Positions 6,833-31,191 of a DNA stretch of 32,000 bases are shown here, one piece after another. Every line of letters starts with the position of its first letter. Positions within the stretch are counted from its first letter, which is position 1. The stretch spans positions 1 through 32,000 of the forward strand of contig NZ_LGHJ01000024.1 of the NCBI RefSeq assembly GCF_001306055.1. Reading direction: 5' to 3'. The stretch comes from Bellilinea caldifistulae (lineage in GTDB: Bacteria > Chloroflexota > Anaerolineae > Anaerolineales > Anaerolineaceae). The notes beneath the pieces are model-generated. The model saw only the letters and a list, made by a program, of their open reading frames with translations. It was not told where the DNA came from and ran no database searches. A program made the position numbers and the translations under genes.

Positions 6833-7094
6833 GAGGACATCCCGGACAACTTGAAAAGGGTGGCAATTTTTGGGATGATTTCACTCAAATGAACCGGCAC
6901 TGTCCTATGATTATCGTCCAATTCGATTAAAGATTGATAAAGAATAACTTACAAAATCCTTACAATTTCATTACAGAAAGGTTCTTTTCTCTTGACAAAT
7001 CGGAATTGCAGATCGGCGGTTGAGGGAACCCGGGCTCGCCCTCAGGCGTCTTATGGATGTTGAAAGCCCTCTGGCGAGTCAAAAGGAGGATGGA

Positions 7095-9237: not shown

Positions 9238-9885
9238 ATGAGGAAAGTAAAGATGGGTAAATTGTACTTCAAAATGAAAATGATGCCCGTAACGGATTTA
9301 CTGCTTTGGCGTCATAATAATAGCGTGATAGATGAAGAGAAACGCCTGCTGGAAGGTGCCCGCCGCTTTGACCTGGACTGTCTTGCGGCAATTTACGACC
9401 GTTACAGTGATGGTCTGTACGGCTATGTAGTCCGTTTGCTGGGCAACGCTGATCTGGCGGAAGAGTGTGTCTCGGAGACCTTTGCCAGATTTTTACAGGC
9501 GTTGCATAACGGCGGCGGGCCGCGCAATCACCTGAAAGCCTACCTGTACCGGATTGCCCACAACTGGGTTACCGATCAGTTCCGCCGTCAGCCGACAACG
9601 ATGGAATTGAGCGAGAATCTCGGCGGGGATGAAAATGATGATGCGGACGGAGCATTGCAACTTGAACAGGAAAAACAACGGCTGCGGGCAGCCTTGCAGG
9701 CGCTCACCCCGGATCAACGGCAGGTGATTCTGCTGCGTTTTTTTGAAGGATGGGAAAATGATCAGATTGCAGCGGCGGTTGAAAAGCCGGTTGGCGCGGT
9801 GAAAGCTTTACAGCATCGCGCCGTTGCCTCACTGCGCCGCTGGTTGGGAGAAGACGAGAGGGAGTGGAAGCATGGCGAAGAGTGA
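9238..9885 (+). CDS. ECF-type RNA polymerase sigma-70 factor
   Basis: Region 2-like block (YDRYSDGLYGYVVRLLGNADLAEECVSETFARF) and region 4 HTH (LTPDQRQVILLRFFEGWENDQIAAAVEKPVGAVKALQHRA). The start is uncertain: ATG 9253 has the better RBS (AGGAAAG). Confidence 0.8.
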   Translation: MRKVKMGKLYFKMKMMPVTDLLLWRHNNSVIDEEKRLLEGARRFDLDCLAAIYDRYSDGLYGYVVRLLGNADLAEECVSETFARFLQALHNGGGPRNHLKAYLYRIAHNWVTDQFRRQPTTMELSENLGGDENDDADGALQLEQEKQRLRAALQALTPDQRQVILLRFFEGWENDQIAAAVEKPVGAVKALQHRAVASLRRWLGEDEREWKHGEE

Positions 9886-14563: not shown

Positions 14564-15616
14564 TCAGCGCGGCGGGTTAATTTGCCACAGGATTAACTTG
14601 CCGGTGGAGTCCAGCGAAGCCAGCCAGCGTCCATCCGGTGAAAAGCGCACACTGATGACACTTTCTGTGTGGCCGGTGAGTGTTTCGACCACGTTCATGT
14701 CGCTGGTGGTGTAGATATCCACCCGGTCAGCCACTCCAACTGCCAGAAGCCGGTCATCCCATGAGAATTCGAGCGCATAGGGCATAGCATCCTGGCGCAG
14801 GCGGAGGAGTTCCTGCCCCAGAACGGCATCCCAGACGAACAAAATAGGGGCATATTCGTTGTCTATCGTACCGCCGGCTGCACTGACCAGCAGGGTGTCT
14901 CCGCGCGAGCGAGCAAAGGCGGTGACAAAGTCCTCGTGATCCAGAGAGGGATAGAGGGTTTCGCTGGGGATGTTCTGCAGTTGAATGCGGGCGCGGGCAG
15001 ACCAGGCCAGGTCAAGGATATTTTCGGCAATGCGCACATCATAAACCGGGGCAGCGGTTTGGAAGCCACGCACGGTTTTGAGCGGGGTGAGGTTTTGCGG
15101 GTTGTAGAGATGGGCGGCCCATTCTTCGTTGGAGCCGATGACCAGCAGCAATCCATCCGGCGAGAAGTGAACCGGGCCGATCAAGAAGTCAGTGGCGAGA
15201 GTACGCTGCTCACCGTTGGTAATGTCGGTGAAGCGCAGGGTTTGCTGGTCGAGGATGGAGACGATGGTGCGTCCGTCGGCGGAGAAATCCAGCAGGCTGG
15301 GGGCTGCGGGGTCGTTGAAGGTGAAAAGCGGTTGCAGGGCAGACACGGCCAGCAGGACGGCGGTTTGATTCCCCAGCACGCCCAGCGTTTGGCTGTCGGT
15401 TGACCAGATCAGCCTTTGCGCATTGGGGAGACTGGCTTCGCCAACCGGTTGGAAGGGGGAAGCCGGGGTAGGTGAAGGGGCTGGCGTTTCGGTTGGCGGC
15501 GGAGCAGGGGTGAGGGTGGCGGTGGGGGTGGGCGTCAGCGTCGGCGGTTGTTTTGGGGCGGGTATGCAGGCGGTTAGGAGGAGAAGGAAGAGGAGAGGAA
15601 GGGATAGACGGGGCAT
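14564..15616 (-). CDS. Lipoprotein with Pro/Thr-rich tether and WD40/PD40-like beta-propeller repeats
   Basis: Signal peptide with lipobox LLTAC, followed by PPTLTPTPTATLTPAPPPTETPAPSPTP. Repeated xFSxDG motifs (DFSADGRTIVS, HFSPDGLLLV, RFSPDGRWLASLDSTGKLILWQ). Confidence 0.65.
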   Translation of the reverse strand: MPRLSLPLLFLLLLTACIPAPKQPPTLTPTPTATLTPAPPPTETPAPSPTPASPFQPVGEASLPNAQRLIWSTDSQTLGVLGNQTAVLLAVSALQPLFTFNDPAAPSLLDFSADGRTIVSILDQQTLRFTDITNGEQRTLATDFLIGPVHFSPDGLLLVIGSNEEWAAHLYNPQNLTPLKTVRGFQTAAPVYDVRIAENILDLAWSARARIQLQNIPSETLYPSLDHEDFVTAFARSRGDTLLVSAAGGTIDNEYAPILFVWDAVLGQELLRLRQDAMPYALEFSWDDRLLAVGVADRVDIYTTSDMNVVETLTGHTESVISVRFSPDGRWLASLDSTGKLILWQINPPR

Positions 15617-15654
15617 GGGATTTTTGTGAACCGGGTATGGTATACTTTTTGATG

Positions 15655-15683
15655 TTGACTTTCATTGATATTACCACTAAAAA
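15655..15683 (+). promoter_or_regulatory. Candidate promoter for the GT-C-like gene
   Basis: TTGACT (15655..15660), a 17-nt spacer, then TAAAAA (15678..15683), 13 nt before ATG 15697. No SD is evident. Confidence 0.3.
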
Positions 15684-15696
15684 GTGACTTAATAAA

Positions 15697-17592
15697 ATGC
15701 TTAAAGAAGTAACTATTCTTCAATGGTTTTTCTTGGTTTTTTCGATTTTGTTATTTATCGGGCCGGGTATCAGTCTATGTAGTTTTCTTAGGCACGAAAC
15801 TAAGTATCGTTTTTCACTATTCTTTCTGATGACATTTGTTCTCTCCATAGCGTTTTGGACGATACTTCTGGTGTATTTTCGCTTTTTTAAAATTAATCTT
15901 CTAAATCATAATTTCGTATACCTTATATCAATTTTTAGTTGGATAATTGGAGTAATAAAATTTATCAAATTATCGAAAAACCGAGAATCCCAATTTCTTC
16001 TCCCTGATAAATGGGAGATACTTCTCATCTTTGGGTTAATTATTTCTTTACTTATCAACACTTATGCGCTGCGTAATATGGTGGTTGGATTGGGCAGCGA
16101 TAGCAATCATCATACGCTTATTACTTATATGTTTATTTGGAATGAAGGTTTACCCAATAACTACTCGCCAGCATATCCGGATATTATTACTTTTAATTAT
16201 CACTTCGGCTTTCACGCTTTGGCAGCAAACTTATCACTCTTAAGTGGGTGGGAACCAAGATTGATGGTTCTTGTTTTGGCTCCGATATTGATTACACTAT
16301 CCGGCCTGGCTACAGCCTACTTTTGCTGGCGAGTTTTTCAAAGTTCAATTGCAATGGCTCTTGCCGGGATAATACCCTCCTTGATAGCGGTTTTTCCAAC
16401 CGCCATGCTGGAATGGGGCAGATATCCTCAAACATTGGGCTTGATCATATTGTCCGTATTTCTGGCTGAGTATCTAGTGGTCCAAGCATCTGAAGTATCT
16501 AAAAGAAAAATAGTTGCTCTATCAGCAATTGCGAGTGGTTTGGCTTTAACCCATTATCGGGTAACTATTATGGGAATCTTGGCTATCTTGCTCTGGGAAT
16601 TCATAAGGCTCATTGAAAAAAAATCACTGATAGCTTTCTTCGGAGAACGAGGACTATTGATTGGTGGTGTTTCAGTTTTCAGTGTTTTTCTTGTTTGGCC
16701 TTGGTTTTTACAAGTGTATCTGAATCAATTTGTTGGTTATGCAGATCCATATTCTGCTCCCACAGAGCTATTTTTTTCGATTGATCGTTTAGGTTCTACC
16801 ACACTCGAATATCCTACAAATATTTCACTAATCGGCGCTTTTGCTTTATTCAGTTTGTGGGCAATTTACAGACGAAATCGTTTAGGAGCGTGGATATTTT
16901 TATGGATGTTTATGATGTTGATCAGTTCGTGGTTGACGAGAGGATTAAAATATACGGCGGCGGATACAATTACTGTTATCACCTCCTCGTACCTACCACT
17001 CTCTATCATGATTGGCTGGGGAGTGAGTGATGTTGAAAAATTATTTTCCCAAAAGATTGTAAATGGAATTTTAGGAACTATTGGTGTGATTGCGTTAGTT
17101 TGGGGGGCATATCACATGAATGGGTTGTTGGATGTTCCTTCTGCTGCGTATGTTAAGCCAGAAGACTTGAAGGCAGCTGAATGGATAAGGCAAAATACAC
17201 CTGAAGATGCCTGTTTTATGATCAATACTTATCGTTTTGAATTCTCAACGAATTTTATTATAGGAAGTGATGCTGGCGGGTGGTTACCTGTTTTAGCTCA
17301 AAGATGCGTTGTTACTTATCCAATGACAAGTAATATCGAACGGTTTGATCATCCTAGCGCATTGGATAAGGTGGTGAGGATACATAATTTAGATGGAAAA
17401 CTAACCTCTAAAGGGGCAATCGATTTATTTGGGAAATTTAATATAAAATATGTGTATGTTAGACAAAATGAAATATCTGAACGGATAAATGCAACAACTC
17501 TTTCGCAGTCGATTTTATATGAAAGGGTATATAGCCGAGATAATGTTGAAATTTATAAGATAAAAATAAACACTGCCATTTCAGTCAAATGA
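15697..17592 (+). CDS. Large polytopic membrane protein with GT-C-like architecture (putative polyprenyl-phosphate-sugar-dependent glycosyltransferase)
   Basis: 631 aa. About 13-14 hydrophobic helices are followed by a soluble C-terminal domain of about 150 aa (VKPEDLKAAEWIRQNTPEDACFMIN...). The layout matches ArnT/PMT/YfhO/AglB-type enzymes. A GSDSNHH motif sits in a loop. No named family was recognised with certainty. Confidence 0.4.
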   Translation: MLKEVTILQWFFLVFSILLFIGPGISLCSFLRHETKYRFSLFFLMTFVLSIAFWTILLVYFRFFKINLLNHNFVYLISIFSWIIGVIKFIKLSKNRESQFLLPDKWEILLIFGLIISLLINTYALRNMVVGLGSDSNHHTLITYMFIWNEGLPNNYSPAYPDIITFNYHFGFHALAANLSLLSGWEPRLMVLVLAPILITLSGLATAYFCWRVFQSSIAMALAGIIPSLIAVFPTAMLEWGRYPQTLGLIILSVFLAEYLVVQASEVSKRKIVALSAIASGLALTHYRVTIMGILAILLWEFIRLIEKKSLIAFFGERGLLIGGVSVFSVFLVWPWFLQVYLNQFVGYADPYSAPTELFFSIDRLGSTTLEYPTNISLIGAFALFSLWAIYRRNRLGAWIFLWMFMMLISSWLTRGLKYTAADTITVITSSYLPLSIMIGWGVSDVEKLFSQKIVNGILGTIGVIALVWGAYHMNGLLDVPSAAYVKPEDLKAAEWIRQNTPEDACFMINTYRFEFSTNFIIGSDAGGWLPVLAQRCVVTYPMTSNIERFDHPSALDKVVRIHNLDGKLTSKGAIDLFGKFNIKYVYVRQNEISERINATTLSQSILYERVYSRDNVEIYKIKINTAISVK

Positions 17593-18021
17593 AAAATATA
17601 CCTCACCCAGATCTATGATATTATTTTCTTTTACTTCAATTTTAAGAACATTTCCACTCTCATCGTAATAAACCATACCACCTGAAACTACCTCATATAT
17701 AACGAGAGAGTAATTACCTGGCTTAATATCATGAAAATAAAAACTACCATCAATTGGATCAACATAAGAGAAAGGGGCTTTTGAAGTATCTAAAAATCCA
17801 CCAGAAAATTCATTGGAAAGTTCTATAATATCCCCAAGGTATACAATTAATCCATTCAAATCAGAAGAATTTGGCATTATTAGCTTACCCTTAACTCCTC
17901 CTGTGCCTGGAAGAGGAGTTGGTTCTACTTTTTTTTCTGTTGCCCTTTCTCCGTTTGGAGCACAACCGAAAGTTAAGATAGTTAGAAGTATAAAAATAAA
18001 ATGCTTGCGGGTTGTTTTCAT
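17581..18021 (-). CDS. Small lipoprotein with a carboxypeptidase-regulatory-like beta-sandwich domain
   Basis: Signal peptide with lipobox LTFGC. GGVKGKLI...LNGLIVYL...DGSFYFHDIKPGNYSLVIYE fits the CarboxypepD_reg-like pattern. Strong SD (GGAGG) lies upstream. The 3' end overlaps the convergent GT-C-like gene by 12 nt. Confidence 0.55.
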   Translation of the reverse strand: MKTTRKHFIFILLTILTFGCAPNGERATEKKVEPTPLPGTGGVKGKLIMPNSSDLNGLIVYLGDIIELSNEFSGGFLDTSKAPFSYVDPIDGSFYFHDIKPGNYSLVIYEVVSGGMVYYDESGNVLKIEVKENNIIDLGEVYFSFD

Positions 18022-18038
18022 ATTTCAACCTCCAATAA

Positions 18039-18072
18039 CAGAAGTGTTGTGGAATTTTCCACAACACTTCTG
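18039..18072 (-). terminator. Perfect 14-bp stem-loop between the 494-aa gene and the lipoprotein gene (attenuator or mRNA-stabilising hairpin)
   Basis: CAGAAGTGTTGTGG (18039..18052), loop AATTTT, CCACAACACTTCTG (18059..18072). It starts 21 nt after the upstream stop codon and ends 17 nt before the next ATG. On the minus strand it is followed by TTATTGGAGG, which is only a weak T-tract. Confidence 0.5.
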
Positions 18073-18093
18073 CATTTTGTAAATATAGGTCAT

Positions 18094-19578
18094 TCACGGA
18101 ATTGGAACGCCAGTATACATCGTTGCAACATGTCGACCATAATTTGTATGAATGACAGTTGCAACCAGTTGAGCCCCTGATGATCCTTGTATAAAGGCTG
18201 AGCCTTTCCAACCAGACGGAATAGAACCATTCCCATCAAGTACTGGACCACCGAAATAAAACTCTATCGCTTGGCCGGGAGTTAGGGTTACATTACTCTT
18301 TGTCCCATTAAGGTTGCTTACAGAGTCTGGGTCAGCCGAGTATGTGATTGTAAATGTGGCATTGGAACTGCCGTAATTTTGTACTTTTATTCCGGAAATC
18401 CATACTCCAGAACCAGAAGGCCAATTGTAAAGCGATGGCAAGCTAATATTCCTGCTACCGCTAGCAAATCCCGCATAGCCTACCGCCACTCCGTATCCGC
18501 TTGCCCCTTCATAATTTGTGTGCTGTACTGTTGCAACAACAGGAACATTTGAATTGATTATTGCATATCCTTTGAACTGGTTAGGCATTGGACCAGCGGG
18601 TGAATTCAAAGTTGTTCCAGGAAGATACAGTTCTGTATTTCCACCAGCAGGGATACTAAGAGTTTTTGTACCGGTAAATGATGGCATCCCAGGGTCAGAT
18701 TTGAATTCCACCGTAATACTTGCGGGTGAGCTGGAGGAATTCACTATCTTTATACCAGATCTCCATGTGCCACTAGCGCCAGAGAAGTTGTTATAAAGAG
18801 ATGGCAGAAGAATCTTTGTTCCAGCATCTGTCGAAGAAAGTCCACGCGCGCTAATAAGCACATTGCCTTGGACATCACCATTACCGACCAGTCGCGTTTG
18901 ATTTGCCATAACTGCAACTGGACCACTTGACTCGATAGTGGCACTTCCAATAAACCACCCCAAATCGTTATATGTTGAAGTAAGGGTGTCAAAGCTTTGT
19001 GTCCCGTAGGGTGCAATACTAAAGGGAACTGTTTTTGTGTGGACACCAGAATCACTATATGAAACAGAAGATGAAGGTTCGGTGAAAACAATGTTTCCAG
19101 TGACTGACGAAGCCGTTGTGTTTTGAACAAAGATTTCGGTGCTCCAACTGTTGTGGTTGCGATAAACATATGGTACAAACACTGATGTAGAGGGTACCAT
19201 TGAATTATAGCTATCAGCCATGCCATAAGGATAATTTGTTGTAGTAACCACAGCACCAACGTTTCGATCAGAACTCACAACAGCCGAATATTGCCCTGCT
19301 GTAACGCTGGAAAAAGAAGGTAGATATACTTCAACTGATTTATTGGGTTGTGCTACTAAAGGACTACCACCAGAGGTCTGGGTGATGACATGTATTGGTG
19401 ATCCTCCACTGCTACCGTAGAGAGAGACACTAAGGTTAGCCACGTTGCTTGGATCAAGATTTTGGATCTTAATTCCAGACTGCCAGGTTCCCCCAGCAAG
19501 GCCATTCGCTATAGATGTTAGCATTAACATCATAATAATAACTATTGGTAACGCTTTGAAAACATTTTTGTTGAACAT
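18094..19578 (-). CDS. Secreted Ser/Thr/Gly/Asn-rich protein built from four homologous modules of about 115 aa (unknown family; candidate surface or matrix protein)
   Basis: Signal peptide MFNKNVFKALPIVIIMMLMLTSIANG. Module starts are GTWQSGIKIQN, SWSTEIFVQN, GTWRSGIKIVN and GVWISGIKVQN, with ends VVTTTNY, ATVQHTNY and ATVIHTNY. LPSLYN / VPYVYRN connectors join them. There is no Cys and no recognisable anchor. Strong SD (GGAGGTAAAAAAATG). Confidence 0.7.
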   Translation of the reverse strand: MFNKNVFKALPIVIIMMLMLTSIANGLAGGTWQSGIKIQNLDPSNVANLSVSLYGSSGGSPIHVITQTSGGSPLVAQPNKSVEVYLPSFSSVTAGQYSAVVSSDRNVGAVVTTTNYPYGMADSYNSMVPSTSVFVPYVYRNHNSWSTEIFVQNTTASSVTGNIVFTEPSSSVSYSDSGVHTKTVPFSIAPYGTQSFDTLTSTYNDLGWFIGSATIESSGPVAVMANQTRLVGNGDVQGNVLISARGLSSTDAGTKILLPSLYNNFSGASGTWRSGIKIVNSSSSPASITVEFKSDPGMPSFTGTKTLSIPAGGNTELYLPGTTLNSPAGPMPNQFKGYAIINSNVPVVATVQHTNYEGASGYGVAVGYAGFASGSRNISLPSLYNWPSGSGVWISGIKVQNYGSSNATFTITYSADPDSVSNLNGTKSNVTLTPGQAIEFYFGGPVLDGNGSIPSGWKGSAFIQGSSGAQLVATVIHTNYGRHVATMYTGVPIP

Positions 19579-19652
19579 TTTTTTACCTCCATAATTTTAG
19601 AGTTGCTATTAAGATACAATTGTTAATTTGCAATAGCAATAATTCTTATGGG

Positions 19653-20267
19653 TTAATGTTCTGGTTTTTTAAATTTACCAATGGCAAATATCCAGGGAAA
19701 CACATATTGTATGTTATGGACGATAATGTAATTTTTTATCAAATTCGAAAAACTTTTTAAATTCCAATGTTGAATATGACCTGGTGTGTTACCAAAACTT
19801 TTTATATATTTCATTCTAGCAAGGTTTAATAATTGCCACCAAGGTTCATTAGGCACGGAGAGAATTGTCCATCCGTTGCCAACCCTTTGAATCTCTTTTA
19901 GAACTAATTCTGGACTTGATACATGTTCGAGAACCTCACATGCAATTACAAGATCGAATGTGTTTTCTGAAAATGGAAGATTTTCTCCAAAACATACAAC
20001 CCAATTAGCATCCGAATTATTTTTTGCACTTGATTTTACGAAATGCCAATCAATATCACTTGCGAAAAAATGGACTTCCGGGTAAATATCTCTGACATAC
20101 CTTACTATGTATCCTTCGCCACTTCCAATTTCTAAAATATTATCTGCTTTAATGCGAGTTAAGAAATATTGAAAAGCACTTTTATACTTATTAACAAAAA
20201 ACTTCACCAATAGATTATTCGAAGTGTATTTATTATAATAATTACCTAAAGGGATGTTCTTTTTCAT
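19653..20267 (-). CDS. Class I SAM-dependent methyltransferase
   Basis: Motif I ILEIGSGEGY, an acidic residue after beta-2 (FASDID), and FDLVIACEVLEHV. 204 aa. Confidence 0.7.
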   Translation of the reverse strand: MKKNIPLGNYYNKYTSNNLLVKFFVNKYKSAFQYFLTRIKADNILEIGSGEGYIVRYVRDIYPEVHFFASDIDWHFVKSSAKNNSDANWVVCFGENLPFSENTFDLVIACEVLEHVSSPELVLKEIQRVGNGWTILSVPNEPWWQLLNLARMKYIKSFGNTPGHIQHWNLKSFSNLIKNYIIVHNIQYVFPWIFAIGKFKKPEH

Positions 20268-20361
20268 AATAATAATTCCGGGGAATACTTGAATATTAGG
20301 CCTGTGTGGTAAGATTATTATAAGATTTTAAACCCTATCGCCCAATCCATTGAGATAGATA

Positions 20362-21291
20362 TTGCAAAATTATAAACCAGGATTTGAAAATAAGTCTTCT
20401 CGCCTTAGGTTTCAACAACTAGGCATATGGCTTGGTCTCTTTTTATTCCTTCTTCAAGTTTATCAAAGTGTCCAAAAATTGCTTCAATCAAAAATTATTT
20501 TCCAATTCTCGTCCCTTAGTATCCTTGCACTTTTTCTTGGCTTAAGTTTCAATTTTCTTCAAATGCTCAATTGGAAATTGATCTTGAGCGGGTTGGGAAT
20601 TATCATTCCCCTTAAGGAAACCCTTAAAAATTTTCCAAGAACGTTCCTGCCTCGATACATTCCCGGCTCAATATGGGGCTATTTGAGCAGGGGAGAGTGG
20701 CTGCTTACTAACTTTAACGTTAGTCATAAGATGAATATTTATAGCTCCTTACTGGAAGTAATTATTCCACTCAGCGCTTCATTATTTCTGCTGTCGGGAT
20801 CTTTTTTAAAGTTTAATTTTCTTTTATATCTAGTTCTTGCTGTCATCATACTCTTCGGTTTTTGGTTGGTATTTGAGTTTTCCCGAAAAAGGATTTTTCC
20901 TCGATTAGGCTTTTCGGATGAAAAAAATTATTTTTCGTTTAGAAGGTGGCTATTAGGCAACTTTATTTTTTCGGTAAATTGGATATTGATGGGGTTGATG
21001 ACATTATTTTTAGTTACTATATTTAATAACCCAAATAACCAATTATCAATTTGGTCGGTTCAAAATGTGTGGAATGCAACTTTAGCCTATTGCACAGCTT
21101 GGCTTGGTGGTTTCCTTGTTTTATTTGTACCTGCGGGGATGGGGGTTCGTGAGATTTTGTTCAGGTTAGTCTTGGAACAACTTATGGGGATTTCTTCTGA
21201 CATTGCTCTTCTGGTTGCTGTTGCAGCCCGGTTTATATCTCTTCTCTCGGAAGGGGTCTGGCTGATTGTTGGGATTCTGATTAAAGATTGA
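20362..21291 (+). CDS. Membrane protein of the LPG_synthase_TM / UPF0104 'flippase-like domain' family
   Basis: About 8 TM helices and the family-typical PAGMGVREI motif near the C-terminus. It begins at TTG 20362, since there is no in-frame ATG until well inside the gene, so the start is uncertain. Confidence 0.55.
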   Translation: MQNYKPGFENKSSRLRFQQLGIWLGLFLFLLQVYQSVQKLLQSKIIFQFSSLSILALFLGLSFNFLQMLNWKLILSGLGIIIPLKETLKNFPRTFLPRYIPGSIWGYLSRGEWLLTNFNVSHKMNIYSSLLEVIIPLSASLFLLSGSFLKFNFLLYLVLAVIILFGFWLVFEFSRKRIFPRLGFSDEKNYFSFRRWLLGNFIFSVNWILMGLMTLFLVTIFNNPNNQLSIWSVQNVWNATLAYCTAWLGGFLVLFVPAGMGVREILFRLVLEQLMGISSDIALLVAVAARFISLLSEGVWLIVGILIKD

Positions 21292-21294
21292 TCA

Positions 21295-22251
21295 TCAAAC
21301 TTCATTACTATTGGGTTTTGCTTCGTCTAAGCGAATGCGATACAAAATCTCTTCTAACAACTTTCTATTAAAACTGATCAAATCCGCCACCAAACCAATT
21401 AGCAAAGTCTGAAAACCGACAATGATCAGCACAGCTCCCAACAATAGCGATTGAATTTTGCCTTCTCCCTGTCCTATGGCGAAAAAGTATAAAAAACGCA
21501 ACGCAGGGATCAGTCCGATTCCGATCATCAAGCTTCCAATGATGGTAAAAACCCTTAAAGGGCGGTACATAGTATAAGCGCGAACAATAGTTACCGTGGA
21601 GTGGCTTAAGTATTCTGTGATGCTGCGCATCAGGCGGGATGGACGGCGGGGCGGATTGGTGCGGATTGGAACGCTGGCGATGGCAAAGTTTTGGCTGCCG
21701 GCTTGAATCAGTGTTTCCAAAGTGTAAGAATAGTTACTCAGTACATTCGTTCGCAGGGCAACTTCACGGGTCATAGCCCGAAAACCACTGGTCGCGTCAG
21801 GAATATCCAACCCGGCTGCTCGTGAAACAACCTTGCTCCCCCAGGTTTGAAGTTTACGTTTAAGCGGTGAAAATGTCTCCAAATTGGCTACCCCTCGGTC
21901 GCCAATGACCAGTTCGGCTTTACCTTCCAAGATAGGCTTGAGCAGAGTCGGTATATCTCCCGCATTGTATTGATTGTCCGCATCGGTATTAAGGATGATA
22001 TCGGCCCCCAGCCGGAGGCATGCATCCAGCCCGGTCCGGTAAGCGGTTGCCAACCCTGCATGTTTCTTTATGCGTACAATATGATGCACCCCTACTTGCC
22101 GGGCAACCTCAGTGGTGTTATCGGTACTGCCATCATCAATAATTAAATACTCAATTTGATCCACCCCATCTATTACACGGGGTAACTCGGCGATGGTGTG
22201 AGGTAAGGTTTCAGCCTCGTTGTAACACGGAATCTGGATGATCAGTTTCAT
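21295..22251 (-). CDS. GT2 glycosyltransferase with two C-terminal TM helices (GtrB/CsbB/ArnC/DPMS-like polyprenyl-phosphate glycosyltransferase)
   Basis: [22 protein letters not shown] and the NTDADNQY (DxD) motif. The C-terminal segments [21 protein letters not shown] and [24 protein letters not shown] form the two helices. 318 aa, the size typical of GtrB. Confidence 0.75.
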
Positions 22252-22291
22252 TGGAGTATGCTTAGTATATCAAAATCCAATTCGGAATATC

Positions 22292-22351: not shown

Positions 22352-22957
22352 ATGCTGAAACGTTTTTGCCTCCTCCTCTCCCTGGCCCTGCTGCTTTCCG
22401 CTTGCCGTGTACTCCCGGAACCGACGCCGGAACCGTTGCCGAGGATTCCCTTTCCGACGTTGCCTCCATCTCCCCCCACCCCTTTGCCTTCGCCGACGCC
22501 GCTGCCCAGCCCAACCCCAACGCCCGAACCCACGGTTGAAATTCAAGCCCAGCCGACTTTGCCTCCCTTTATCCCCTTGCAGCAAGCCCCGCTGTTTGCG
22601 CCGCCCTTTGCCCACGCCGAGCCGCCCTGCGGGTGGATGGGTGCAGCCGGTCAGGTCTTTGACGGCGAAGGCCGACCACTGAACGGCATCATCGTTTCAG
22701 TGGTCGGCAATGTGGCCGGCCAGAATGTGGACGCGCTTGGATTCACCGGCCTTGCCCCGGCTTACGGCCCCGGCGGCTACGAGGTAACTCTCCACAACGG
22801 GGTTGCCCCCGGCATCTTTTGGGTGCAATTGTTCGATCTGGCGGCTCAGCCGCTGACCGAGCCGCTCAACTTCACCATGTTGACCGATTGCCAAACCAGC
22901 CTGGCGGTGATCAACTTCCGTCAGCTGGATGCGGCCTTTCAACCGGTTTTGCCCTGA
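22352..22957 (+). CDS. Lipoprotein with Pro-rich tether and a small beta-rich C-terminal domain (unknown function)
   Basis: Lipobox LLSAC, then PEPTPEPLP...PTPLPSPTPLPSPTPTPEPT. The C-terminal domain, with two Cys (CGW...TDCQ) and GQVFDGEGRPLNGIIVSVVG, resembles a carboxypeptidase-regulatory-like fold. Confidence 0.55.
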   Translation: MLKRFCLLLSLALLLSACRVLPEPTPEPLPRIPFPTLPPSPPTPLPSPTPLPSPTPTPEPTVEIQAQPTLPPFIPLQQAPLFAPPFAHAEPPCGWMGAAGQVFDGEGRPLNGIIVSVVGNVAGQNVDALGFTGLAPAYGPGGYEVTLHNGVAPGIFWVQLFDLAAQPLTEPLNFTMLTDCQTSLAVINFRQLDAAFQPVLP

Positions 22958-23103: not shown

Positions 23104-24548
<1,445 letters not shown>

Positions 24549-24602
24549 GGAAGAGAAGGACGGGAAGCCTGATCTCCCCCGTCCATTGAGGAAATAACGC
24601 GT

Positions 24603-25450
24603 ATGGCAGAACGAGTCAACACCAACGTGACCTACATCCGACCGGCGCGCGGCTGGATCAACATCAACCTGCGCGATCTTTGGCTCTACCGCGAACTGGT
24701 CTATTTCCTCACCTGGCGGGATATTAAAGTGCGCTATAAGCAGGCAGTCCTTGGCATCGGCTGGGCAATTTTTCAACCTGTGCTGAGCATGGTCATCTTT
24801 ACGGTCATTTTCAACCGCTTTTTAGGCGTTAAACCGGATGCTGGCATTCCCAACGAGTTCTACCCGATCTTCGGTTTTGCAGCCTTGCTGCCATGGCAGT
24901 TTTTTCAGGGGGCGCTGCAGCGCGCCAGCATCAGTCTGGTGACCAACGCCAACCTGCTCACCAAGGTCTATTTTCCTCGCCTGATCATCCCCCTTTCGGC
25001 GGTGGCTGCCGGGCTGGTTGATTTCTTCTTTTCTTTCATCGTGCTGGCTGCCATGATGATCTACTTTGGCGTGCCGTTTACGAGCCGTCTGTTGTGGCTG
25101 CCACTCTTTTTGTTGCTGGCCCTTTTAGCGGCGCTGGCGGTGGGGCTTTGGCTATCGGCGCTCAATGTCCAGTACCGCGATGTGCAGCACATGGTTCCGT
25201 TTCTTCTGACGGCCTGGATGTACGCCTCGCCAGTGGTGTACTCGGCCGAAGTCATCACCGTTTCCCCGTTCTGGCAGGCAGTTTATGCCCTCAACCCGAT
25301 GGTTGGAGTCATTCAGGGTTTCCGCTGGGCATTATTCGGCACCAACCCACCCGGTCTTTCCATGCTGGTTTCGGCCGGGGTGGTGCTGGTTTTGTTTGTA
25401 TCAGGCCTGTTTTACTTCCGGCGCATGGAGCGCATTTTTGCGGATATGAT

Positions 25451-25454
<4 letters not shown>
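24603..25454 (+). CDS. wzm: ABC-2 type polysaccharide/teichoic-acid export permease (Wzm/TagG/KpsM class)
   Basis: LWLYRELVYFLTWRDIKVRYKQAVLGIGWAIFQPVLSM signature and 6 TM helices. 283 aa. Confidence 0.8.
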
Positions 25455-26701
<1,247 letters not shown>

Positions 26702-26704
26702 CTT

Positions 26705-28327
26705 ATGACACCTTCTGGAAAAGACACCATCAAACGAATTTTGGGAAACATTCCCTTCACGGCAGAGTTGTATTATCTGGTGCGCCAACGCGGTAAACCG
26801 CTGCGCACGCGTTTTTCTCTACGGAATTTGCAAACCCACCTGCCGGAAATCAGCCGTCAGGCAGCCGAATTACGCCAGACCGCCCCGCCCGGCAAAAAGA
26901 TTTTCATCTTTGCCACCCTGCACTACTGGATTGAACACGCCGCACTGGTAGGAATGGCGCTGGCAGCCCAGGGGCATAAAGTGACTCTCGGTTACCTGCC
27001 CTATGCGGACTGGCAAAACGACATCAACCGTTTTGACCTGCGCCGGCAGAATGCCTACGCCCGCAAGGTGCTGGAAGAAGCCCGTCCCTTGATGGATTCA
27101 GTTTCTTTTATCTCCGTGCGCGCCCCTTACACCCCGCTGCCCGCTGATCTGGCTGCCGCCGTGCAGGAAGTCAGCACCTATGATGCGCAGTATACCCTGC
27201 AGGTGGAAGAAATTGACCCGCAATCCGAGATTTATAAACTGCGTTTCAACCGCAACCGCGAGATTGCCCAAGGCGTGCTGGCGTACCTGCGCCAGAACCG
27301 CCCGGATGTGGTTGTTGTCCCCAACGGCACGATTCAGGAATTGGGCGTGGTTTATCGGGTTGCCCGCCATCTCAAATTGCCGGTAGTTACCTATGAGTTC
27401 AGCGATCAGCGTCAGCGCATCTGGCTGGCTTATAACAGCGAGGTGATGCGGCAGGATACGGCGAAACTGTGGGAAGCCAGCAAAGACCAGCCGCTTCGCG
27501 AAGATCAGCTGGAGCGGATGCGCAGTCTGATGATGGCGCGTCAGCGGGCGGCCATGTGGGAAAACTTCGCCCGCCTGTGGCAGGGCAAACCCGCCGAAGG
27601 CGGGGAGCAAGCCCGCCGCAAACTGGGGTTGGATCAACGCCCGGTGGTGTTGTTAGCCACCAACGTCCTGGGTGACAGTCTGACGCTGGGGCGGCAGGTC
27701 TTTTCCAAGTCCATGGCGGAGTGGATCAGCCGCACCGTCCAGTACTTCATCGGCCGGCCGGATGTACAGCTGGTCATCCGCATCCACCCCGGTGAGGTGC
27801 TGACCCACGGGCAATCCATGGCGGATGTGGTGCAGGAAGTCCTGCCGCGCCTGCCGGAAAACATCCGCCTGATCCGCGCCAGCGACGAGATCAACACCTA
27901 CGATCTGATTGAGGTAGCCGATGTGGGGCTGGTCTATACCACGACGGTTGGCCTTGAAATGGCCATGATGGGCCTGCCGGTGATTGTGGCCGGGCAGACT
28001 CACTACCGCGAGCGCGGCTTTACCTATGACCCGGATTCGTGGGTAACCTACTTCAAACTGCTGGGGCATATTCTTGAAAACCCAGCCGAATACCGTCTGA
28101 GCCGCGAGCAGGTCAATCAGGCATGGCAGTATGCCTACCGTTTCTTCTTTGATTACCCCCAGCCTTTCCCGTGGCATCTGGTGCGGTTGTGGGAAGATTA
28201 CCAGAATACCGATTTAAAGACCGCCCTGACCGGCAGCGAAAGCGAAGGTTATCGCCGATCATTCCGTTTTCTGGCGGGTGAGCCGGTCAACTGGGATTAC
28301 ATCAAGAACAACGGCGGTAAATCCTGA
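26705..28327 (+). CDS. GT-B-like transferase resembling capsule biosynthesis proteins KpsC/KpsS (Capsule_synth family)
   Basis: PVVLLATNVLGDSLTLG, QLVIRIHPGE and VADVGLVYTTTVGLEMAMMGLPVIVAGQTHY match the LQxxxD / HP / vvt.nStvGlEAl..gkPV...G.a.Y blocks I associate with KpsC/KpsS beta-Kdo transferases. 540 aa. Confidence 0.45.
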   Translation: MTPSGKDTIKRILGNIPFTAELYYLVRQRGKPLRTRFSLRNLQTHLPEISRQAAELRQTAPPGKKIFIFATLHYWIEHAALVGMALAAQGHKVTLGYLPYADWQNDINRFDLRRQNAYARKVLEEARPLMDSVSFISVRAPYTPLPADLAAAVQEVSTYDAQYTLQVEEIDPQSEIYKLRFNRNREIAQGVLAYLRQNRPDVVVVPNGTIQELGVVYRVARHLKLPVVTYEFSDQRQRIWLAYNSEVMRQDTAKLWEASKDQPLREDQLERMRSLMMARQRAAMWENFARLWQGKPAEGGEQARRKLGLDQRPVVLLATNVLGDSLTLGRQVFSKSMAEWISRTVQYFIGRPDVQLVIRIHPGEVLTHGQSMADVVQEVLPRLPENIRLIRASDEINTYDLIEVADVGLVYTTTVGLEMAMMGLPVIVAGQTHYRERGFTYDPDSWVTYFKLLGHILENPAEYRLSREQVNQAWQYAYRFFFDYPQPFPWHLVRLWEDYQNTDLKTALTGSESEGYRRSFRFLAGEPVNWDYIKNNGGKS

Positions 28328-28342
28328 CAAAGGCGTGATTGG

Positions 28343-29215
28343 ATGAGCGAAACCCGGGTTAAACAAAAAGTGCGTGAGTTTTACGATCAGGTCGGCTGGC
28401 AAACCGTCAGCGATGGCCTGTATCAAAACGCGCGCTATGAAGACCTGCGGCCAGTATCCCGTGAGTACATTCACCGCTGCCACCTGCGGGTTAACCGGCA
28501 TCTTGCACCGCAGGGTCGGTTTTTACTGGATGCCGGTTCCGGGCCGGTGCAGTACCCCGAATACCTGACGTATTCGCAGGGCTATCGTTACCGCGTGTGC
28601 GCCGATATTTCGATCCTCGCCTTGCGGGAAGCCCGCAAGCGACTGGGTGATCATGGGTTGTTTGTGGTTGCGGATGTTGCCAATTTGCCCTTCCGCGCGG
28701 ATGTGTTCGAGGGGGTGGTGTCCCTTCACACCCTCCATCATCTGCCTTTGAATGAGCAAAAACAAGCCTATCATGAACTCTACCGCGTCTTAACTCCCGG
28801 ACGCAGTCTGGCAGTGGTCAACGGCTGGACGGATTCACCACTCATGCGTCGGTTTGGCTGGCTGGTGAACCTGATGGAGACCATCGGTAAGTGGATTGCC
28901 CGATTGCGCGGCAAAGAAAAAGCAACACCCCGCAACGACGGGAAAACCGCCGTTCCTGTTAAGGCAACCCCAACCGGCACCTTTGTGGAAAAACTGGACG
29001 CAGCCTGGCTGCGCCGCGAATTAGCCGAATTAAGTCCCCAAATCTGGGTCTGGCGGAGCGTCAGCGTACGCTTTTTGCGCGCCGTCATTCACCGCCTTCT
29101 GGCCGGGCGTCTGTGGTTGCGTTTGTTATACGCGCTGGAAGAACGATTTCCGCATTATTTTGGTGAAAAGGGGCAATACCCCCTGATTGTGATTGATAAA
29201 CCGAAAGGATCATGA
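28343..29215 (+). CDS. Class I SAM-dependent methyltransferase with a C-terminal extension of about 100 aa
   Basis: Motif I LLDAGSGPVQ, plus VADVANLPFRADVFEGVVSLHTLHHL. 290 aa. Confidence 0.7.
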   Translation: MSETRVKQKVREFYDQVGWQTVSDGLYQNARYEDLRPVSREYIHRCHLRVNRHLAPQGRFLLDAGSGPVQYPEYLTYSQGYRYRVCADISILALREARKRLGDHGLFVVADVANLPFRADVFEGVVSLHTLHHLPLNEQKQAYHELYRVLTPGRSLAVVNGWTDSPLMRRFGWLVNLMETIGKWIARLRGKEKATPRNDGKTAVPVKATPTGTFVEKLDAAWLRRELAELSPQIWVWRSVSVRFLRAVIHRLLAGRLWLRLLYALEERFPHYFGEKGQYPLIVIDKPKGS

Positions 29216-29248
29216 CCCGCCCGTTGGGCGGAGGTGGAGGAAGCCAGC

Positions 29249-30256
29249 ATGGATTGGAGCGATAAAGTTGTTCTGGTGACCGGTGGTACCGGGTCGTTTG
29301 GAAAGAAATTCATCCGTATTTTGCTGGATGAGTACCGCCCGCTGAAGGTGATTGTCTTCAGCCGCGACGAATTGAAGCAACACGAGATGCGCCAGGCCGG
29401 TTTTGATGACAAACGGCTGCGTTATTTCATCGGTGATGTGCGCGATAAAGACCGCCTGCACCGCGCCTTCAACGGTGTGGATGTGGTAGTTCACGCCGCT
29501 GCGCTCAAACAGGTGCCAGCCTGCGAATACAACCCGATGGAAGCCATCAAAACCAACATCCTCGGCAGCAGTAATGTGATTGATGCCGCGTTGGATACCG
29601 GCGTCAGCCGTGTGATTGCTCTCAGCACTGATAAGGCGGTTAACCCGGTCAACCTGTACGGAGCCACAAAACTGGCTGCTGAAAAATTGTTCATCCAATC
29701 CAACAGTTACGCCGGCGGCATGACTACCCGTTTTGCCTGCGTCCGCTATGGTAATGTGGTGGGCAGCCGCGGCAGCGTTGTGCCGGTTTTCCTCAAACAA
29801 CGTGAAAATGGAGTCATCACCATCACCGATAAACGCATGACCCGTTTCTGGATCTCGCTGGAACAGGGCGTGCGGTTTGTGCTGCGCTGTGCCGAGCAGA
29901 TGCTGGGCGGCGAGGTGTTTGTGCCAAAGATCCCCAGCATGAAAGTGGTGGATCTGGCAAAGGCCGTAGCGCCGCGCGCCGAAATTGAGACAATCGGTAT
30001 CCGTCCGGGTGAAAAACTGCACGAAGTGCTGATTTCCGAGGACGAAGCCCGCACCACTGTGGAGTTGGAGGATATGTATGTGGTACAACCGGCTGAAACG
30101 CTCTGGTTTGGCCGGGAATGGGAAAAACGCGGCAAACCTCTGCCGGACGGCTTCCGTTATGCCAGCAACACCAACACCGACTGGCTGACGATTGAGAAAA
30201 TTCGTGAGATCATCCGTCCGATTGAAGAGGCCTACAAACAGGGAACCCTGGAATGA
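29249..30256 (+). CDS. UDP-GlcNAc 4,6-dehydratase of the PseB/FlaA1/CapD-CapE (FnlA) class
   Basis: VLVTGGTGSFGKKF, VVHAAALKQVP, the STDKAVNPVNLYGATKLAAEK motif and RYGNVVGSRGSV. ATG 29249 has GGAGGAAG upstream. The inverting (Pse) versus FnlA-type subclass cannot be told by eye. Confidence 0.75.
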   Translation: MDWSDKVVLVTGGTGSFGKKFIRILLDEYRPLKVIVFSRDELKQHEMRQAGFDDKRLRYFIGDVRDKDRLHRAFNGVDVVVHAAALKQVPACEYNPMEAIKTNILGSSNVIDAALDTGVSRVIALSTDKAVNPVNLYGATKLAAEKLFIQSNSYAGGMTTRFACVRYGNVVGSRGSVVPVFLKQRENGVITITDKRMTRFWISLEQGVRFVLRCAEQMLGGEVFVPKIPSMKVVDLAKAVAPRAEIETIGIRPGEKLHEVLISEDEARTTVELEDMYVVQPAETLWFGREWEKRGKPLPDGFRYASNTNTDWLTIEKIREIIRPIEEAYKQGTLE

Positions 30257-31191
30257 TGCGGATTCTGGTCACAGGTGCCAGCGGCTTGCTGGGCTTGAAC
30301 TTTGCCCTGCGTTACCACGCCGATCATCAGGTCAGCGGGGTGGTTCACCGCAACCCGCTGCGCAACCCGCCCTTTCGGCAAATCGTCGCCGACCTGAGCG
30401 ACCCAAAAATGCTCGAAGCCGTGTTGGAGCAGACTCAACCGGAGGTGGTGCTGCATTGTGCTGCGCTGGCCAATCTGGACGAATGCGAACGCAACCCCCA
30501 GCGCGCGGTTGAGATCAATGTGAACCTGCCGGCGGCGTTGGCGCGTTGCGCTGCGCGGGATGGCTTTCGGCTGGTGCATCTTTCTACCGACGCGGTTTTT
30601 GACGGACAGCGTGGTGACTACACCGAAGAGGATACCCCCAACCCCTTGAGTGTGTATGCCCGCACCAAGCGGCAGGCCGAACTGCGCGTCCTGGAAACCT
30701 GTCCGCAAGCGCTGGTGGCACGGGTTAATTTTTACGGGTGGAGCCTTTCCGGTCAGCGAAGTTTGGGGGAGTTTTTCTTTTATAACTTGAAAGAAGGCAG
30801 GCCGGTCAAGGGCTTTACGGATGTGTTGTTTTGCCCGCTGGAGGCCACCCAACTGGCCGATCTTTTGCTGAGTCTGGTTCGTAAGGGCGCTGCGGGTTTG
30901 TTCCACGTGGTCAGCAGCGAGTGCCAGTCCAAATATCAGTTTGGGGTGAGCATTGCCCGCCGGTTTGGGCTGGATGAAAGGTTGATCGAACCGGTTTCGG
31001 TGATGGAGGGGGGGCTGGTTGCCCGGCGTTCGCCCAATTTACGCCTGCGCACCGATAAACTGCGTGAGGCGCTTGGCGAATCTCCACCCGGGCAGGCGGA
31101 GGCTCTGGAGCGTTTTTATGAATTGTATTTATCCGGTTATCCGCAGCGAGTCCGCTCGCTGGCGGATGGCCGTGGAAGCCAATCGGCCTAA
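30253..31191 (+). CDS. RmlD-like SDR sugar-nucleotide 4-reductase
   Basis: ILVTGASGLLG, VLHCAALANLDECE, STDAVFDG and YARTKRQAE (YxxxK). 312 aa. The start overlaps the upstream stop (ATGA). Confidence 0.65.
   Translation: MMRILVTGASGLLGLNFALRYHADHQVSGVVHRNPLRNPPFRQIVADLSDPKMLEAVLEQTQPEVVLHCAALANLDECERNPQRAVEINVNLPAALARCAARDGFRLVHLSTDAVFDGQRGDYTEEDTPNPLSVYARTKRQAELRVLETCPQALVARVNFYGWSLSGQRSLGEFFFYNLKEGRPVKGFTDVLFCPLEATQLADLLLSLVRKGAAGLFHVVSSECQSKYQFGVSIARRFGLDERLIEPVSVMEGGLVARRSPNLRLRTDKLREALGESPPGQAEALERFYELYLSGYPQRVRSLADGRGSQSA

Follow-up and report, generated by a model that had tools for sequence, protein, structure and literature searches.

Six genes of Bellilinea caldifistulae, a thermophilic and filamentous member of the Anaerolineae (Chloroflexota), lie side by side within 32,000 nucleotides (nt) of its genome (contig NZ_LGHJ01000024.1, positions 1 to 32,000, the stretch that we call the window), in DNA that is much richer in AT than the DNA around it. 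One encodes a candidate glycosyltransferase of the GT-C class (631 amino acids, aa), one a 146-aa lipoprotein (LP), one a 494-aa secreted protein built of four related modules (REP), one a methyltransferase that would use S-adenosylmethionine (SAM), one a 309-aa membrane protein of the UPF0104 family, and one a glycosyltransferase of family 2 (GT2). We argue, with a probability that we would put at roughly 0.55, that these genes are a resident envelope locus of the Anaerolineae and of Thermoflexus, where REP and LP would make up a surface structure and where the GT2, the UPF0104 protein and the GT-C protein would glycosylate that structure by way of a polyprenyl-phosphate sugar. A first-pass annotation, made by a model from the letters alone, had taken the block for a portable kit for glycosylation outside the cytoplasm, of a composition shared by no described system. 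The six open reading frames (ORFs) are where it put them, and the three enzymatic roles that it named are all present (a GT2 of the polyprenyl-phosphate type, a UPF0104 flippase candidate and a GT-C protein). Its ideas of portability and novelty fare less well.

The argument begins with recurrence. A scan of a genome collection gave 8 loci only, and so, a scan of metagenomes was added; 54 loci were fetched and scored with profiles, and the associations were counted on the 19 that are non-redundant and have several kb of sequence around them (individual related loci are called L001 and so on). LP adjoins the REP gene on its downstream side in 19/19, and a methyltransferase gene lies within 8 kb of REP in 18/19, directly upstream wherever gene order was mapped. 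A GT-C protein of the DUF6541 type is present in 14 of the 19 loci, a GT2 in 10 and a UPF0104 protein in nine. The six genes do keep company elsewhere: all of them are found together in 5/19 (the window, L001, L008, L012 and L028), and the core is found in nearly all. That core consists of the methyltransferase, REP and LP, accompanied in most loci by a large GT-C protein that sometimes comes from another family. On one strand of L009, from a metagenome-assembled genome (MAG) of Anaerolinea, there follow a GT2, a 1064-aa GT-C protein of the PMT_2 type, the methyltransferase, REP, LP and a UPF0104-like gene; in Thermoflexus hugenholtzii (L015), there are a DUF6541-type relative, a GT2 and two PMT_2 proteins; and in L016, REP and LP are embedded in a cluster of Wzx, GT4, Bac_transf and Wzz genes. 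Loci that have no DUF6541 GT-C protein carry another glycosylation device instead. Across deep divergence, in other words, the REP and LP genes are tied to glycosylation genes. A REP-LP pair that stays constant while the glycosylation genes beside it change is the pattern to be expected if a surface glycoprotein carried a glycan that varies, although this is association, not proof.

Was the block inserted? In 500-nt windows, its GC content is 0.31-0.44 (15501-21500), and that of the rest of the 32 kb is 0.45-0.70. GC at third codon positions (GC3) is 0.33 in the GT-C gene, 0.20 in LP, 0.33 in REP, 0.25 in the methyltransferase gene, 0.37 in the UPF0104 gene and 0.50 in the GT2 gene, against 0.58-0.71 in 14 flanking genes (the comparison covers the 32-kb window and the related loci). 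The AT-rich block is real, and because GC3 differs so between the cluster genes and the flanks, the shift is synonymous as well as large. Its left edge is sharp, at ~15.65 kb, and its right edge is a gradient within the GT2 gene. One may read such a drop as the trace of a recent mobile island, that is, of six genes that were transferred horizontally, as one block, out of a donor of low GC. The GC3 contrast (0.20-0.37 with the GT2 gene set aside, vs. 0.58-0.71) and the sharp left boundary fit this idea, as do the AT-rich versions of the cluster in several GC-rich hosts, Thermoflexus included, and the low GC of surface-glycan loci is commonly taken as a sign of lateral transfer (PMC2943079). The relatives argue otherwise. 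L001, L008 and L012 have the same six genes in the same order and with the same flanks as the window (L012 is cut on the GT-C side): a WD40 lipoprotein and an M50B peptidase on one side and, on the other, a proline-rich lipoprotein, a MarR gene, an epimerase gene, Wzm, Wzt, a Capsule_synth-like gene and a methyltransferase gene. A more distant MAG (L010, REP 54% identical) has five of the six beside the same glycan operon. In L008 (7215-14004) and L012 (7262-13190), both from Bellilinea MAGs of a sister lineage, the cluster has a host-like GC3 of 0.58-0.72. The REP tree joins the window and L001 with L008 and L012, just as the flanks do. The window has no tRNA gene, no direct repeat flanking the block and only short repeats at chance level; no integrase or transposase is found among the six genes, save for one sub-threshold Pfam match to DDE_Tnp_1 within the GT2; and identity profiles of the GT2 against AT-type and GC-type relatives have no recombination breakpoint where the GC gradient lies. 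Because the relatives have the same flanks and the REP tree matches those flanks, we conclude that the cluster is resident and vertically inherited, not a recent insertion. The recent mobile event is largely refuted, and we hold it to be highly improbable; “portable” is not the word for these genes.

If the genes were not newly inserted, then why are they so rich in AT? Several lineages share the low GC of this locus, and we take it as a property of the locus rather than as a sign that the genes came in recently. The cluster has a GC3 of 0.20-0.37 in the window and L001, which are the sister pair to L008 and L012, and an AT-rich cluster in a GC-rich host recurs in scattered lineages (L007, L035, L033 and Thermoflexus, L015), while elsewhere, the cluster matches its host. 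The Thermoflexus cluster genes have a GC3 of 0.26-0.36 in a host of 62-66% GC, with REP at 0.31, while the GT2 there is at 0.82. We considered an import of REP from low-GC Anaerolineae and rejected it: past L014 and L001, it is the GC-type L008 and L012 that come nearest to the window's REP, ahead of its counterparts in low-GC hosts. Recent transfer is an unlikely cause of the low GC; long-term maintenance or repeated exchange among relatives may lie behind it. Low GC is known for the loci of O-antigens, capsules and surface-layer (S-layer) glycans, where it is strongest in the most variable genes (PMC2943079); in the window, it also covers the most conserved gene, REP. The patchiness that we see has a parallel in the loci of O-antigens, capsules and S-layer glycosylation (slg), whose low GC was noted long ago and still lacks an explanation, and the fact that the same syntenic cluster is AT rich or host-like by lineage counsels caution against equating a drop in GC with an inserted island.

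As a side observation, one 2.9-kb contig (L014, CALJNV010000147.1) with genes 93%, 81% and 73% identical to REP, LP and the GT-C gene is binned in a “Bacteroidales” MAG; this placement is most likely a binning error, not a transfer.

No other protein of the locus comes near REP in conservation: between the window and L001, REP has 90% identity, whereas the GT-C protein has 64% and the GT-C protein, the methyltransferase and the UPF0104 protein together span 62-64%; in L003, REP is 73% and the GT-C protein 40% identical. It begins with a hydrophobic, signal-like segment, has no cysteine and has 8% charged residues. The four-module secreted protein of the first-pass annotation is borne out by internal repeats (z-scores up to 17) and by an AlphaFold2 (AF2) model that is all-beta and compact (predicted local distance difference test, pLDDT, 92.3; predicted template-modelling score, pTM, 0.88). 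Single modules match the fold of TM1070 and of the Anabaena sensory rhodopsin transducer (E 4e-5, 20-24% identity), and there is a weak Pfam match to DUF5719. In none of these comparisons did an SLH domain, an S-layer Pfam family or a whole-protein structural match to any S-layer protein turn up. The REP superfamily is large: a cut-off of E<=1e-3 gives 2543 representative clusters, and one of E<=1e-30 still gives 151. Among the search matches, every member that has a name at source is “hypothetical” or has a label for a domain only; in the literature, searched for DUF5719, for DUF6541 and for S-layers in Anaerolineae or Thermoflexus, none of these proteins proved to be the subject of a paper. 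REP's accessions in public records are GAP09497.1 and WP_ entries only, with no KPL (AC812) accession, unlike its neighbours.

LP is a lipoprotein, as first described: its lipobox reads ...LTFGC, and the cysteine is kept in 12/15 homologous ORFs (two duplicate loci counted). It has weak matches to the beta-sandwich families fn3_3 and EMC7, and its UniRef name is “Carboxypeptidase regulatory-like domain”; publicly, it is annotated with a length of either 146 aa or 98 aa.

The methyltransferase, REP and LP genes form, in that order, a unit on the minus strand. The GT-C gene converges on it, with a 12-nt overlap of 3' ends, and the UPF0104 gene is read away from the methyltransferase gene and towards the GT2 gene. 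A GGAGG stands 8 nt upstream of the REP ATG, and another stands before the LP gene; the claim that both proteins are “strongly translated” keeps these two Shine-Dalgarno sequences as its evidence and goes as far as they do. Past the REP stop codon there is a further signal. Within 140 nt of it, 40/44 related loci have a hairpin of -20 kcal/mol or stronger, as do 17% of random segments, and because the sequence of the hairpin varies between loci, it is the structure, rather than the sequence, that is kept. The hairpin of the window is likely a 3' stabiliser or partial terminator, and it may set the ratio of REP to LP product. A scan for consensus promoters and terminators was at chance level overall; the post-REP hairpin alone stood out. 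A protein that is the most conserved of its locus, has a consensus Shine-Dalgarno sequence, is followed by a conserved hairpin and has no cysteine looks like a major subunit, and REP may well be one.

What does the 631-aa protein do? It is identical (100%) to BECAL_00639 of Bellilinea caldifistulae, and by sequence, it had no useful match in Pfam, NCBIfam or the PDB; neither it nor its family profile found anything among PDB chains, and matches came from comparison of folds alone. The AF2 model, built with a family of 41 relatives (pLDDT 92.8, pTM 0.94), has ~14 transmembrane helices, counted on the model, and a C-terminal alpha/beta domain outside the cytoplasm. Its best 31 Foldseek matches in the PDB are GT-C enzymes without exception: STT3 (1.6e-9), followed by DPY19, AglB, AftA, PglB, ArnT, AftD, ALG9 and Pmt4, with AftB and ALG3 also among the 31, at template-modelling (TM) scores of ~0.45-0.55 and probabilities of 0.94-1.0. 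Membrane proteins and transporters of other classes come in at E>0.2. The GT-C fold that was first proposed for a protein with 13-14 transmembrane helices is confirmed at the level of a predicted structure. By the positive-inside rule, both termini would lie outside. The family alignment has 17 invariant columns, including D135, H139, T140, Y168, H169, H173, R242, Q245, H286, Y287, R288, D490 and D525. The first of these, D135 (motif GSDS-HHT), is invariant across 38 sequences with identity down to 24%, and the same rule applied to the AF2 helices places it in a loop outside the membrane after the fourth transmembrane helix. The invariant residues (D135, H139, R242, R288, D490, D525 and others) all fall in predicted outside loops, a placement that would suit a GT-C active site. 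None of the computational outcomes that the first-pass annotation named as refuting it has come about: the GT-C fold is present, with an invariant Asp in a loop predicted to lie outside, the genes do co-occur in other loci, and the shift in composition is real.

As to family, the window protein itself has no Pfam match to DUF6541 (PF20176); a homolog 63% identical to it (P0007) does match (4e-12, 45.6 bits vs. a gathering cut-off of 29), several other homologs and a neighbour in L018 are preannotated with PF20176, and longer relatives (~800 aa) touch DUF1616. An hhalign comparison of the GT-C family with single PMT_2 proteins of L015 and L009 gave a weak shared stretch (...LTHY) at probabilities of 12% and 1%, and it was set aside as unusable.

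A first place among folds for STT3 invites another thought, namely that the GT-C protein acts en bloc, as STT3, AglB and PglB do, and moves a whole polyprenyl-diphosphate-linked glycan onto REP. The neighbouring ABC-transporter pathway would build and export that glycan, and the GT2 would supply a branch sugar or some other step. STT3, AglB and PglB are top Foldseek matches and have a similar build (a membrane part and an outside C-terminal domain). A sequon at N153 is kept in 23/30 REP homologs, and no O-oligosaccharyltransferase of the WsaB/WsfB or WaaL/Wzy_C type was found among the ORFs scanned (9.8-31.9 kb of the window). However, the protein has no WWDYG motif (indeed, no WWD) and no STT3 Pfam match even at E<=10, and sequence and profile searches of the PDB with it found no oligosaccharyltransferase. 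Lacking that motif, it is therefore not an STT3-type oligosaccharyltransferase by sequence, and its likeness to those enzymes is one of fold only. Because DPY19, AftA, ArnT and AftD score about equally (TM ~0.5 for all), the Foldseek match is to the GT-C class, not to oligosaccharyltransferases specifically. A GT2 of the polyprenyl-monophosphate-sugar type, moreover, accompanies the GT-C protein in 10/19 loci, a context that would suit a polyprenyl-phosphate sugar as the donor. We consider en-bloc transfer quite improbable.

The GT2 of the cluster is easier to place. It matches PF00535 at 6e-24 and, in NCBIfam, AglJ best of all (1.9e-31, residues 4-298), with PpgS (1e-18), dolichyl-phosphate hexose transferase, ArnC and PgfS also matching, the last two over residues ~1-292; the alignment to PgfS is full length at 1.5e-8. 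Among PDB chains, it aligns to dolichyl-phosphate mannose synthase (DPMS, 5mlz) over residues 1-219 at 3e-15 and to ArnC and GtrB (sll0501) over residues 2-292, hydrophobic C-terminal segments included. By type, the homology makes it a polyprenyl-phosphate sugar synthase, which confirms the “GtrB-like” label that it first received; every NCBIfam equivalog cut-off, from which a sugar specificity would follow, is missed by far (109.6 bits for AglJ against 325). The methyltransferase, with matches to Methyltransf_11/23/25 at E 1e-12 to 1e-15 and scores below all NCBIfam equivalog cut-offs, is confirmed, on its sequence, as a generic class I SAM enzyme of the kind first proposed.

The 309-aa protein by itself has no Pfam match in our scan, but 34/38 aligned relatives match PF03706 (best E 2.6e-17), and an identical protein is preannotated with that family under the name “Flippase-like domain-containing.” The original assignment to UPF0104/LPG_synthase_TM is confirmed at the family level. 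Among PDB chains, the profile of the family did not reach MprF. According to PMC5898192, MprF is the one protein for which lipid flippase activity of the UPF0104 fold has been shown experimentally. Public annotations of the protein give it 309 aa (AC812_15870) or 242 aa (BECAL_00643). The first-pass annotation had it stand in for a GtrA-type flippase. There is indeed no GtrA-family (PF04138) Pfam match among the six genes that fill the block. The UPF0104 protein, absent from about half of the loci, is not obligate.

Might it flip something else? A glycosylated membrane lipid has been proposed as the cargo of GpgF in Pseudomonas and of HexF in Clostridioides difficile, and if the same were true here, the UPF0104 protein would be connected only loosely with the GT-C step. 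In the GpgSDF system, GpgS is a GT4 and GpgF a UPF0104 protein whose flippase role is predicted and unverified (PMC12713373). UPF0104 relatives at 31-34% identity also adjoin REP-like and LP-like genes, and two loci, L018 and L019, have a GT4 gene and two methyltransferase genes in the company of UPF0104 and no GT2 within 6 kb of it. The absence of UPF0104 from half of the loci would suit such independence. Yet, the UPF0104 gene has one for a polyprenyl-phosphate-type GT2 as its neighbour in five loci (the window, L001, L008, L012 and L028), and the GT4-type clusters still hold REP-like and LP-like genes, with a DUF6541 GT-C gene in L018. The glycolipid route thus strikes us as improbable. The GT4-type arrangement is, in its own right, a second and more distant type of cluster (L018, 3311-11054; L019, 3318-9127; L020, 409-6119), which consists of a GT4, two methyltransferases, a UPF0104 protein, a REP-like protein of 476-493 aa and an LP-like protein of 178-190 aa. 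Like GpgSDF, it uses a GT4; L018 adds the DUF6541 GT-C gene, and L020 has a GT-C-family gene cut by the end of the contig.

How, then, might a REP-LP surface structure be made and glycosylated? REP would be an abundant structural protein of the surface and LP its anchor or assembly factor. At the inner face of the membrane, the GT2 (an enzyme type assigned by homology) would charge polyprenyl phosphate with a sugar, and the methyltransferase, by analogy with AglP, may methylate that sugar or a precursor of it. The UPF0104 protein would then move the lipid-linked sugar to the outer face, where the DUF6541-type GT-C protein, whose fold is modelled, would transfer it. The acceptor would most likely be REP or else a glycan attached to REP and supplied by the adjacent Wzm/Wzt operon.

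Several things weigh against this scheme, and we set them out together. That REP is glycosylated, abundant and on the surface is what we infer, and D135 is a candidate catalytic residue placed by sequence and predicted topology. S-layer proteins usually evolve fast and are acidic; REP is highly conserved, its pI is near 7, and it carries neither an SLH domain nor any other known anchor domain. Its N-X-S/T sequons number 11, where 8.3 +/- 2.5 are expected, which is no clear enrichment, and N153 is the one position at which a sequon is kept in most homologs; the sequon test is a weak one that neither supports nor excludes N-glycosylation. In L017, a REP-like and LP-like pair (28% identical) has no glycosylation genes nearby. 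About half of the loci have no UPF0104 gene and about half have no GT2 gene, and therefore, the “complete kit” is not a fixed unit. Finally, the GT2 and GT-C proteins could equally serve the neighbouring polysaccharide operon.

This last point deserves to be taken seriously. The operon (MarR-type regulator, epimerase, Wzm, Wzt with a weak Wzt_C match, Capsule_synth-like protein, methyltransferase, CapD-like dehydratase and RmlD-like reductase) is syntenic with the cluster in L001, L008, L012 and L010, that is, down to 54% REP identity, and for that reason, we regard it as part of one conserved envelope region and not, as in the first-pass annotation, as a second and separate neighbour. On this rival reading, the GT2, the UPF0104 protein and the GT-C protein would add side-chain sugars, at the outer face, to the polymer exported by Wzm/Wzt, much as GtrABC decorates O-antigen, CsbB/GtcA/YfhO decorates teichoic acids and GacI/GacL decorates the streptococcal rhamnan. 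REP would then not be glycosylated but would bind or organise the polymer, with LP as its anchor. The GT2 gene lies one gene (the proline-rich lipoprotein) away from the MarR/epimerase/Wzm/Wzt/Capsule_synth operon, the linkage holds even in L010, the GC of the GT2 gene is nearer to that of the host, like the operon and unlike the other cluster genes, and the REP sequons are as unremarkable as we have said. On the other side, L003, L015, L009 and L018 keep GT-C and GT2 genes by REP and LP with no Wzm/Wzt in the sequenced flanks. The GT-C gene is on the strand of the methyltransferase, REP and LP genes in L009, L010, L011, L015 and L018, and the fold matches of the REP modules (TM1070 and the rhodopsin transducer) come with no verifiable sugar-binding function. 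Decoration of the polysaccharide alone is the main rival and seems to us rather unlikely, and glycosylation of a REP-LP surface structure remains the reading that we prefer.

Table 1. The AT-rich cluster and its flanks, in positions of the window
Feature	Position	Strand	Basis
WD40 beta-propeller lipoprotein, 350 aa, conserved left flank	14564..15616	-	lipobox LLTAC
GT-C candidate, 631 aa, DUF6541-type family	15697..17592	+	AF2 fold; homologs match PF20176
LP, 146 aa, small beta-sandwich (carboxypeptidase-regulatory-like)	17581..18021	-	lipobox; weak fn3_3/EMC7 matches
Perfect 16-bp stem-loop between REP stop codon and LP Shine-Dalgarno	18039..18072	-	hairpin kept across loci
REP, 494 aa, secreted, four beta-sandwich modules	18094..19578	-	signal-like N-terminus; AF2 model
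Class I SAM-dependent methyltransferase, 204 aa, cytoplasmic, first gene of operon	19653..20267	-	Methyltransf_11/23/25
UPF0104/LPG_synthase_TM membrane protein, 309 aa, candidate lipid-linked-sugar flippase	20362..21291	+	PF03706, family level
Polyisoprenyl-phosphate-type GT2, 318 aa, two hydrophobic C-terminal segments	21295..22251	-	PF00535; AglJ/ArnC/GtrB/DPMS matches
Proline-rich lipoprotein, 201 aa, between cluster and glycan operon	22352..22957	+	lipobox LLSAC
ABC-transporter-dependent glycan operon, host-like GC	23104..31191	+	Pfam matches

The lipoproteins on either side of the cluster (Table 1) may be part of the same envelope region. The WD40 protein is in the same position in L001 and L008, and in L010, a weak 28% match lies ~2 kb past the LP gene; the 201-aa protein, for which the Pfam scan gave no match, keeps its position in L001, L008, L010 and L012. 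Both have long Pro/Thr-rich linkers, and the L010 matches are weaker. In the glycan operon, Wzm and Wzt occupy 24603-26701, and the gene right after Wzt (26705-28327) encodes a 540-aa protein with a weak Capsule_synth (KpsC/KpsS-like) match that is kept in L001, L008, L010 and L012 and would be an unusual partner in a glycan operon of monoderm-type Chloroflexota. The MarR-type gene of the window is at 23104-23589; in L003 (5444-6748) and L020 (6222-7631), two unrelated contexts, the methyltransferase, REP and LP genes have beside them a fusion of a GerE-type helix-turn-helix (HTH) domain with a Kelch beta-propeller, which may be a dedicated regulator. Farther off in the window, a bacterial serpin gene (7020-8426; PF00079, E 3e-121) keeps its place in L001. 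The genes for an ECF-type sigma factor and, after it, a DUF5667 protein (9238-11062) probably encode a sigma/anti-sigma pair. Towards its 3' end (10501-11000), the DUF5667 gene has a GC of 0.70 and an AT skew of +0.55, which suggests a low-complexity linker.

Why should one locus in one thermophile matter? Little is understood of the envelopes of Chloroflexota, and to our knowledge, the Anaerolineae have no major surface protein that has been defined; here, a large and conserved REP family with glycosylation genes beside it nominates one. The locus is also a natural test bed for a 10-year-old prediction that UPF0104 proteins flip lipid-linked sugars, with sister lineages that have the gene and sister lineages that do not. 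If our preferred reading is true, the DUF6541 GT-C family gains a function. We would go one step farther, if only tentatively and with some doubt, and imagine that REP and LP are the building blocks of an undescribed envelope structure (a surface layer or a sheath) of the filamentous Anaerolineae and Thermoflexus, served by a dedicated DUF6541 GT-C and UPF0104 glycosylation route, with an AT-richness that is kept by selection or recurrent exchange. The strongly AT-rich synonymous composition does persist in some GC-rich lineages and not in their sister clades. Should this larger picture hold, it would give first functions to DUF6541, to the REP superfamily (including its DUF5719-like members) and to bacterial stand-alone UPF0104 proteins.

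How new is all of this? The first-pass annotation knew of no described system of this composition, and that was an overstatement, because a trio with archaeal GT2, UPF0104 and STT3/PMT-like members was predicted in 2015, and because slg and Pgf loci set glycosylation genes beside their cargo. The overall logic is that of the three-part systems of the Gtr, CsbB-YfhO and Arn types, a familiar kind of system made here of uncharacterised parts. As in GtrA/GtrB/GtrC, CsbB/GtcA/YfhO and ArnC/ArnEF/ArnT, there is a GT2 with C-terminal membrane helices (nearly all of it can be aligned to GtrB and to ArnC), a transferase of the GT-C fold and a small membrane protein as flippase candidate. The cluster differs from them in that it has no GtrA- or ArnE/F-type flippase and, in about half of its loci, a UPF0104 protein instead, in that its GT-C protein belongs to the uncharacterised DUF6541, and in that it encodes a methyltransferase and a candidate acceptor within itself.

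Three described cases stand closer, and the archaeal agl genes are one of them. For glycosylation in archaea, Makarova et al. predicted UPF0104 as the flippase in 2015, and they noted a conserved neighbourhood in which UPF0104 (arCOG00899) occurs with an AglD-like GT2 and an STT3/PMT-like protein, arCOG00563 (PMC5898192), and CDD calls COG0392 “Predicted membrane flippase AglD2/YbhN” (quoted in PMC12713373). The trio of roles and the flippase prediction are the same in the cluster, whose GT2 has its best NCBIfam match in AglJ, and there is a SAM methyltransferase as well. For the latter, AglP of Haloferax is the parallel. The acceptor of the archaeal system is the S-layer glycoprotein. The host of our cluster is a bacterium (Chloroflexota), its UPF0104 protein is separate and not fused to a GT2, and none of its components reaches an equivalog cut-off.

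Among bacteria, the slg loci of Geobacillus and Paenibacillus offer a second comparison. In Geobacillus stearothermophilus and Geobacillus tepidamans, the structural gene stands beside the glycan genes, Wzm/Wzt among them, and GC is below that of the genome, lowest in the most variable genes; in Paenibacillus alvei, a WsfH/WsfD branch goes through a separate lipid carrier, with WsfD as transferase, and the review reports its flippase as missing (PMC2943079). The window also has Wzm/Wzt and a low GC, the latter specific to lineages. Unlike the slg loci, it has no O-oligosaccharyltransferase of the WsaB/WsfB type among the scanned ORFs, its REP lacks an SLH domain, is conserved to an unusual degree and is at most a putative S-layer protein, and its low GC covers the REP, GT-C and UPF0104 genes, not the Wzm/Wzt operon.

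A third precedent is cnm-pgfS-pgfM1-pgfE-pgfM2 of Streptococcus mutans, where the cargo gene lies directly before the genes for a membrane GT-A (PgfS) and a GT-C (PgfM1, PMT_2) and is followed by a leaky terminator (PMC5856776). The cluster GT2 matches PgfS, and L009 and Thermoflexus use PMT_2-type GT-C proteins. The Pgf cargo, however, is a Thr-rich repeat adhesin, whereas REP is an unrelated, folded beta-sandwich protein, and the cluster adds a methyltransferase, LP and UPF0104 and has a GT-C protein of the DUF6541 type. What is new, then, is not the logic but this set of parts: a DUF6541 GT-C protein, a stand-alone bacterial UPF0104 protein, a near-constant methyltransferase (18/19) and a REP-LP pair for which no function has been described.

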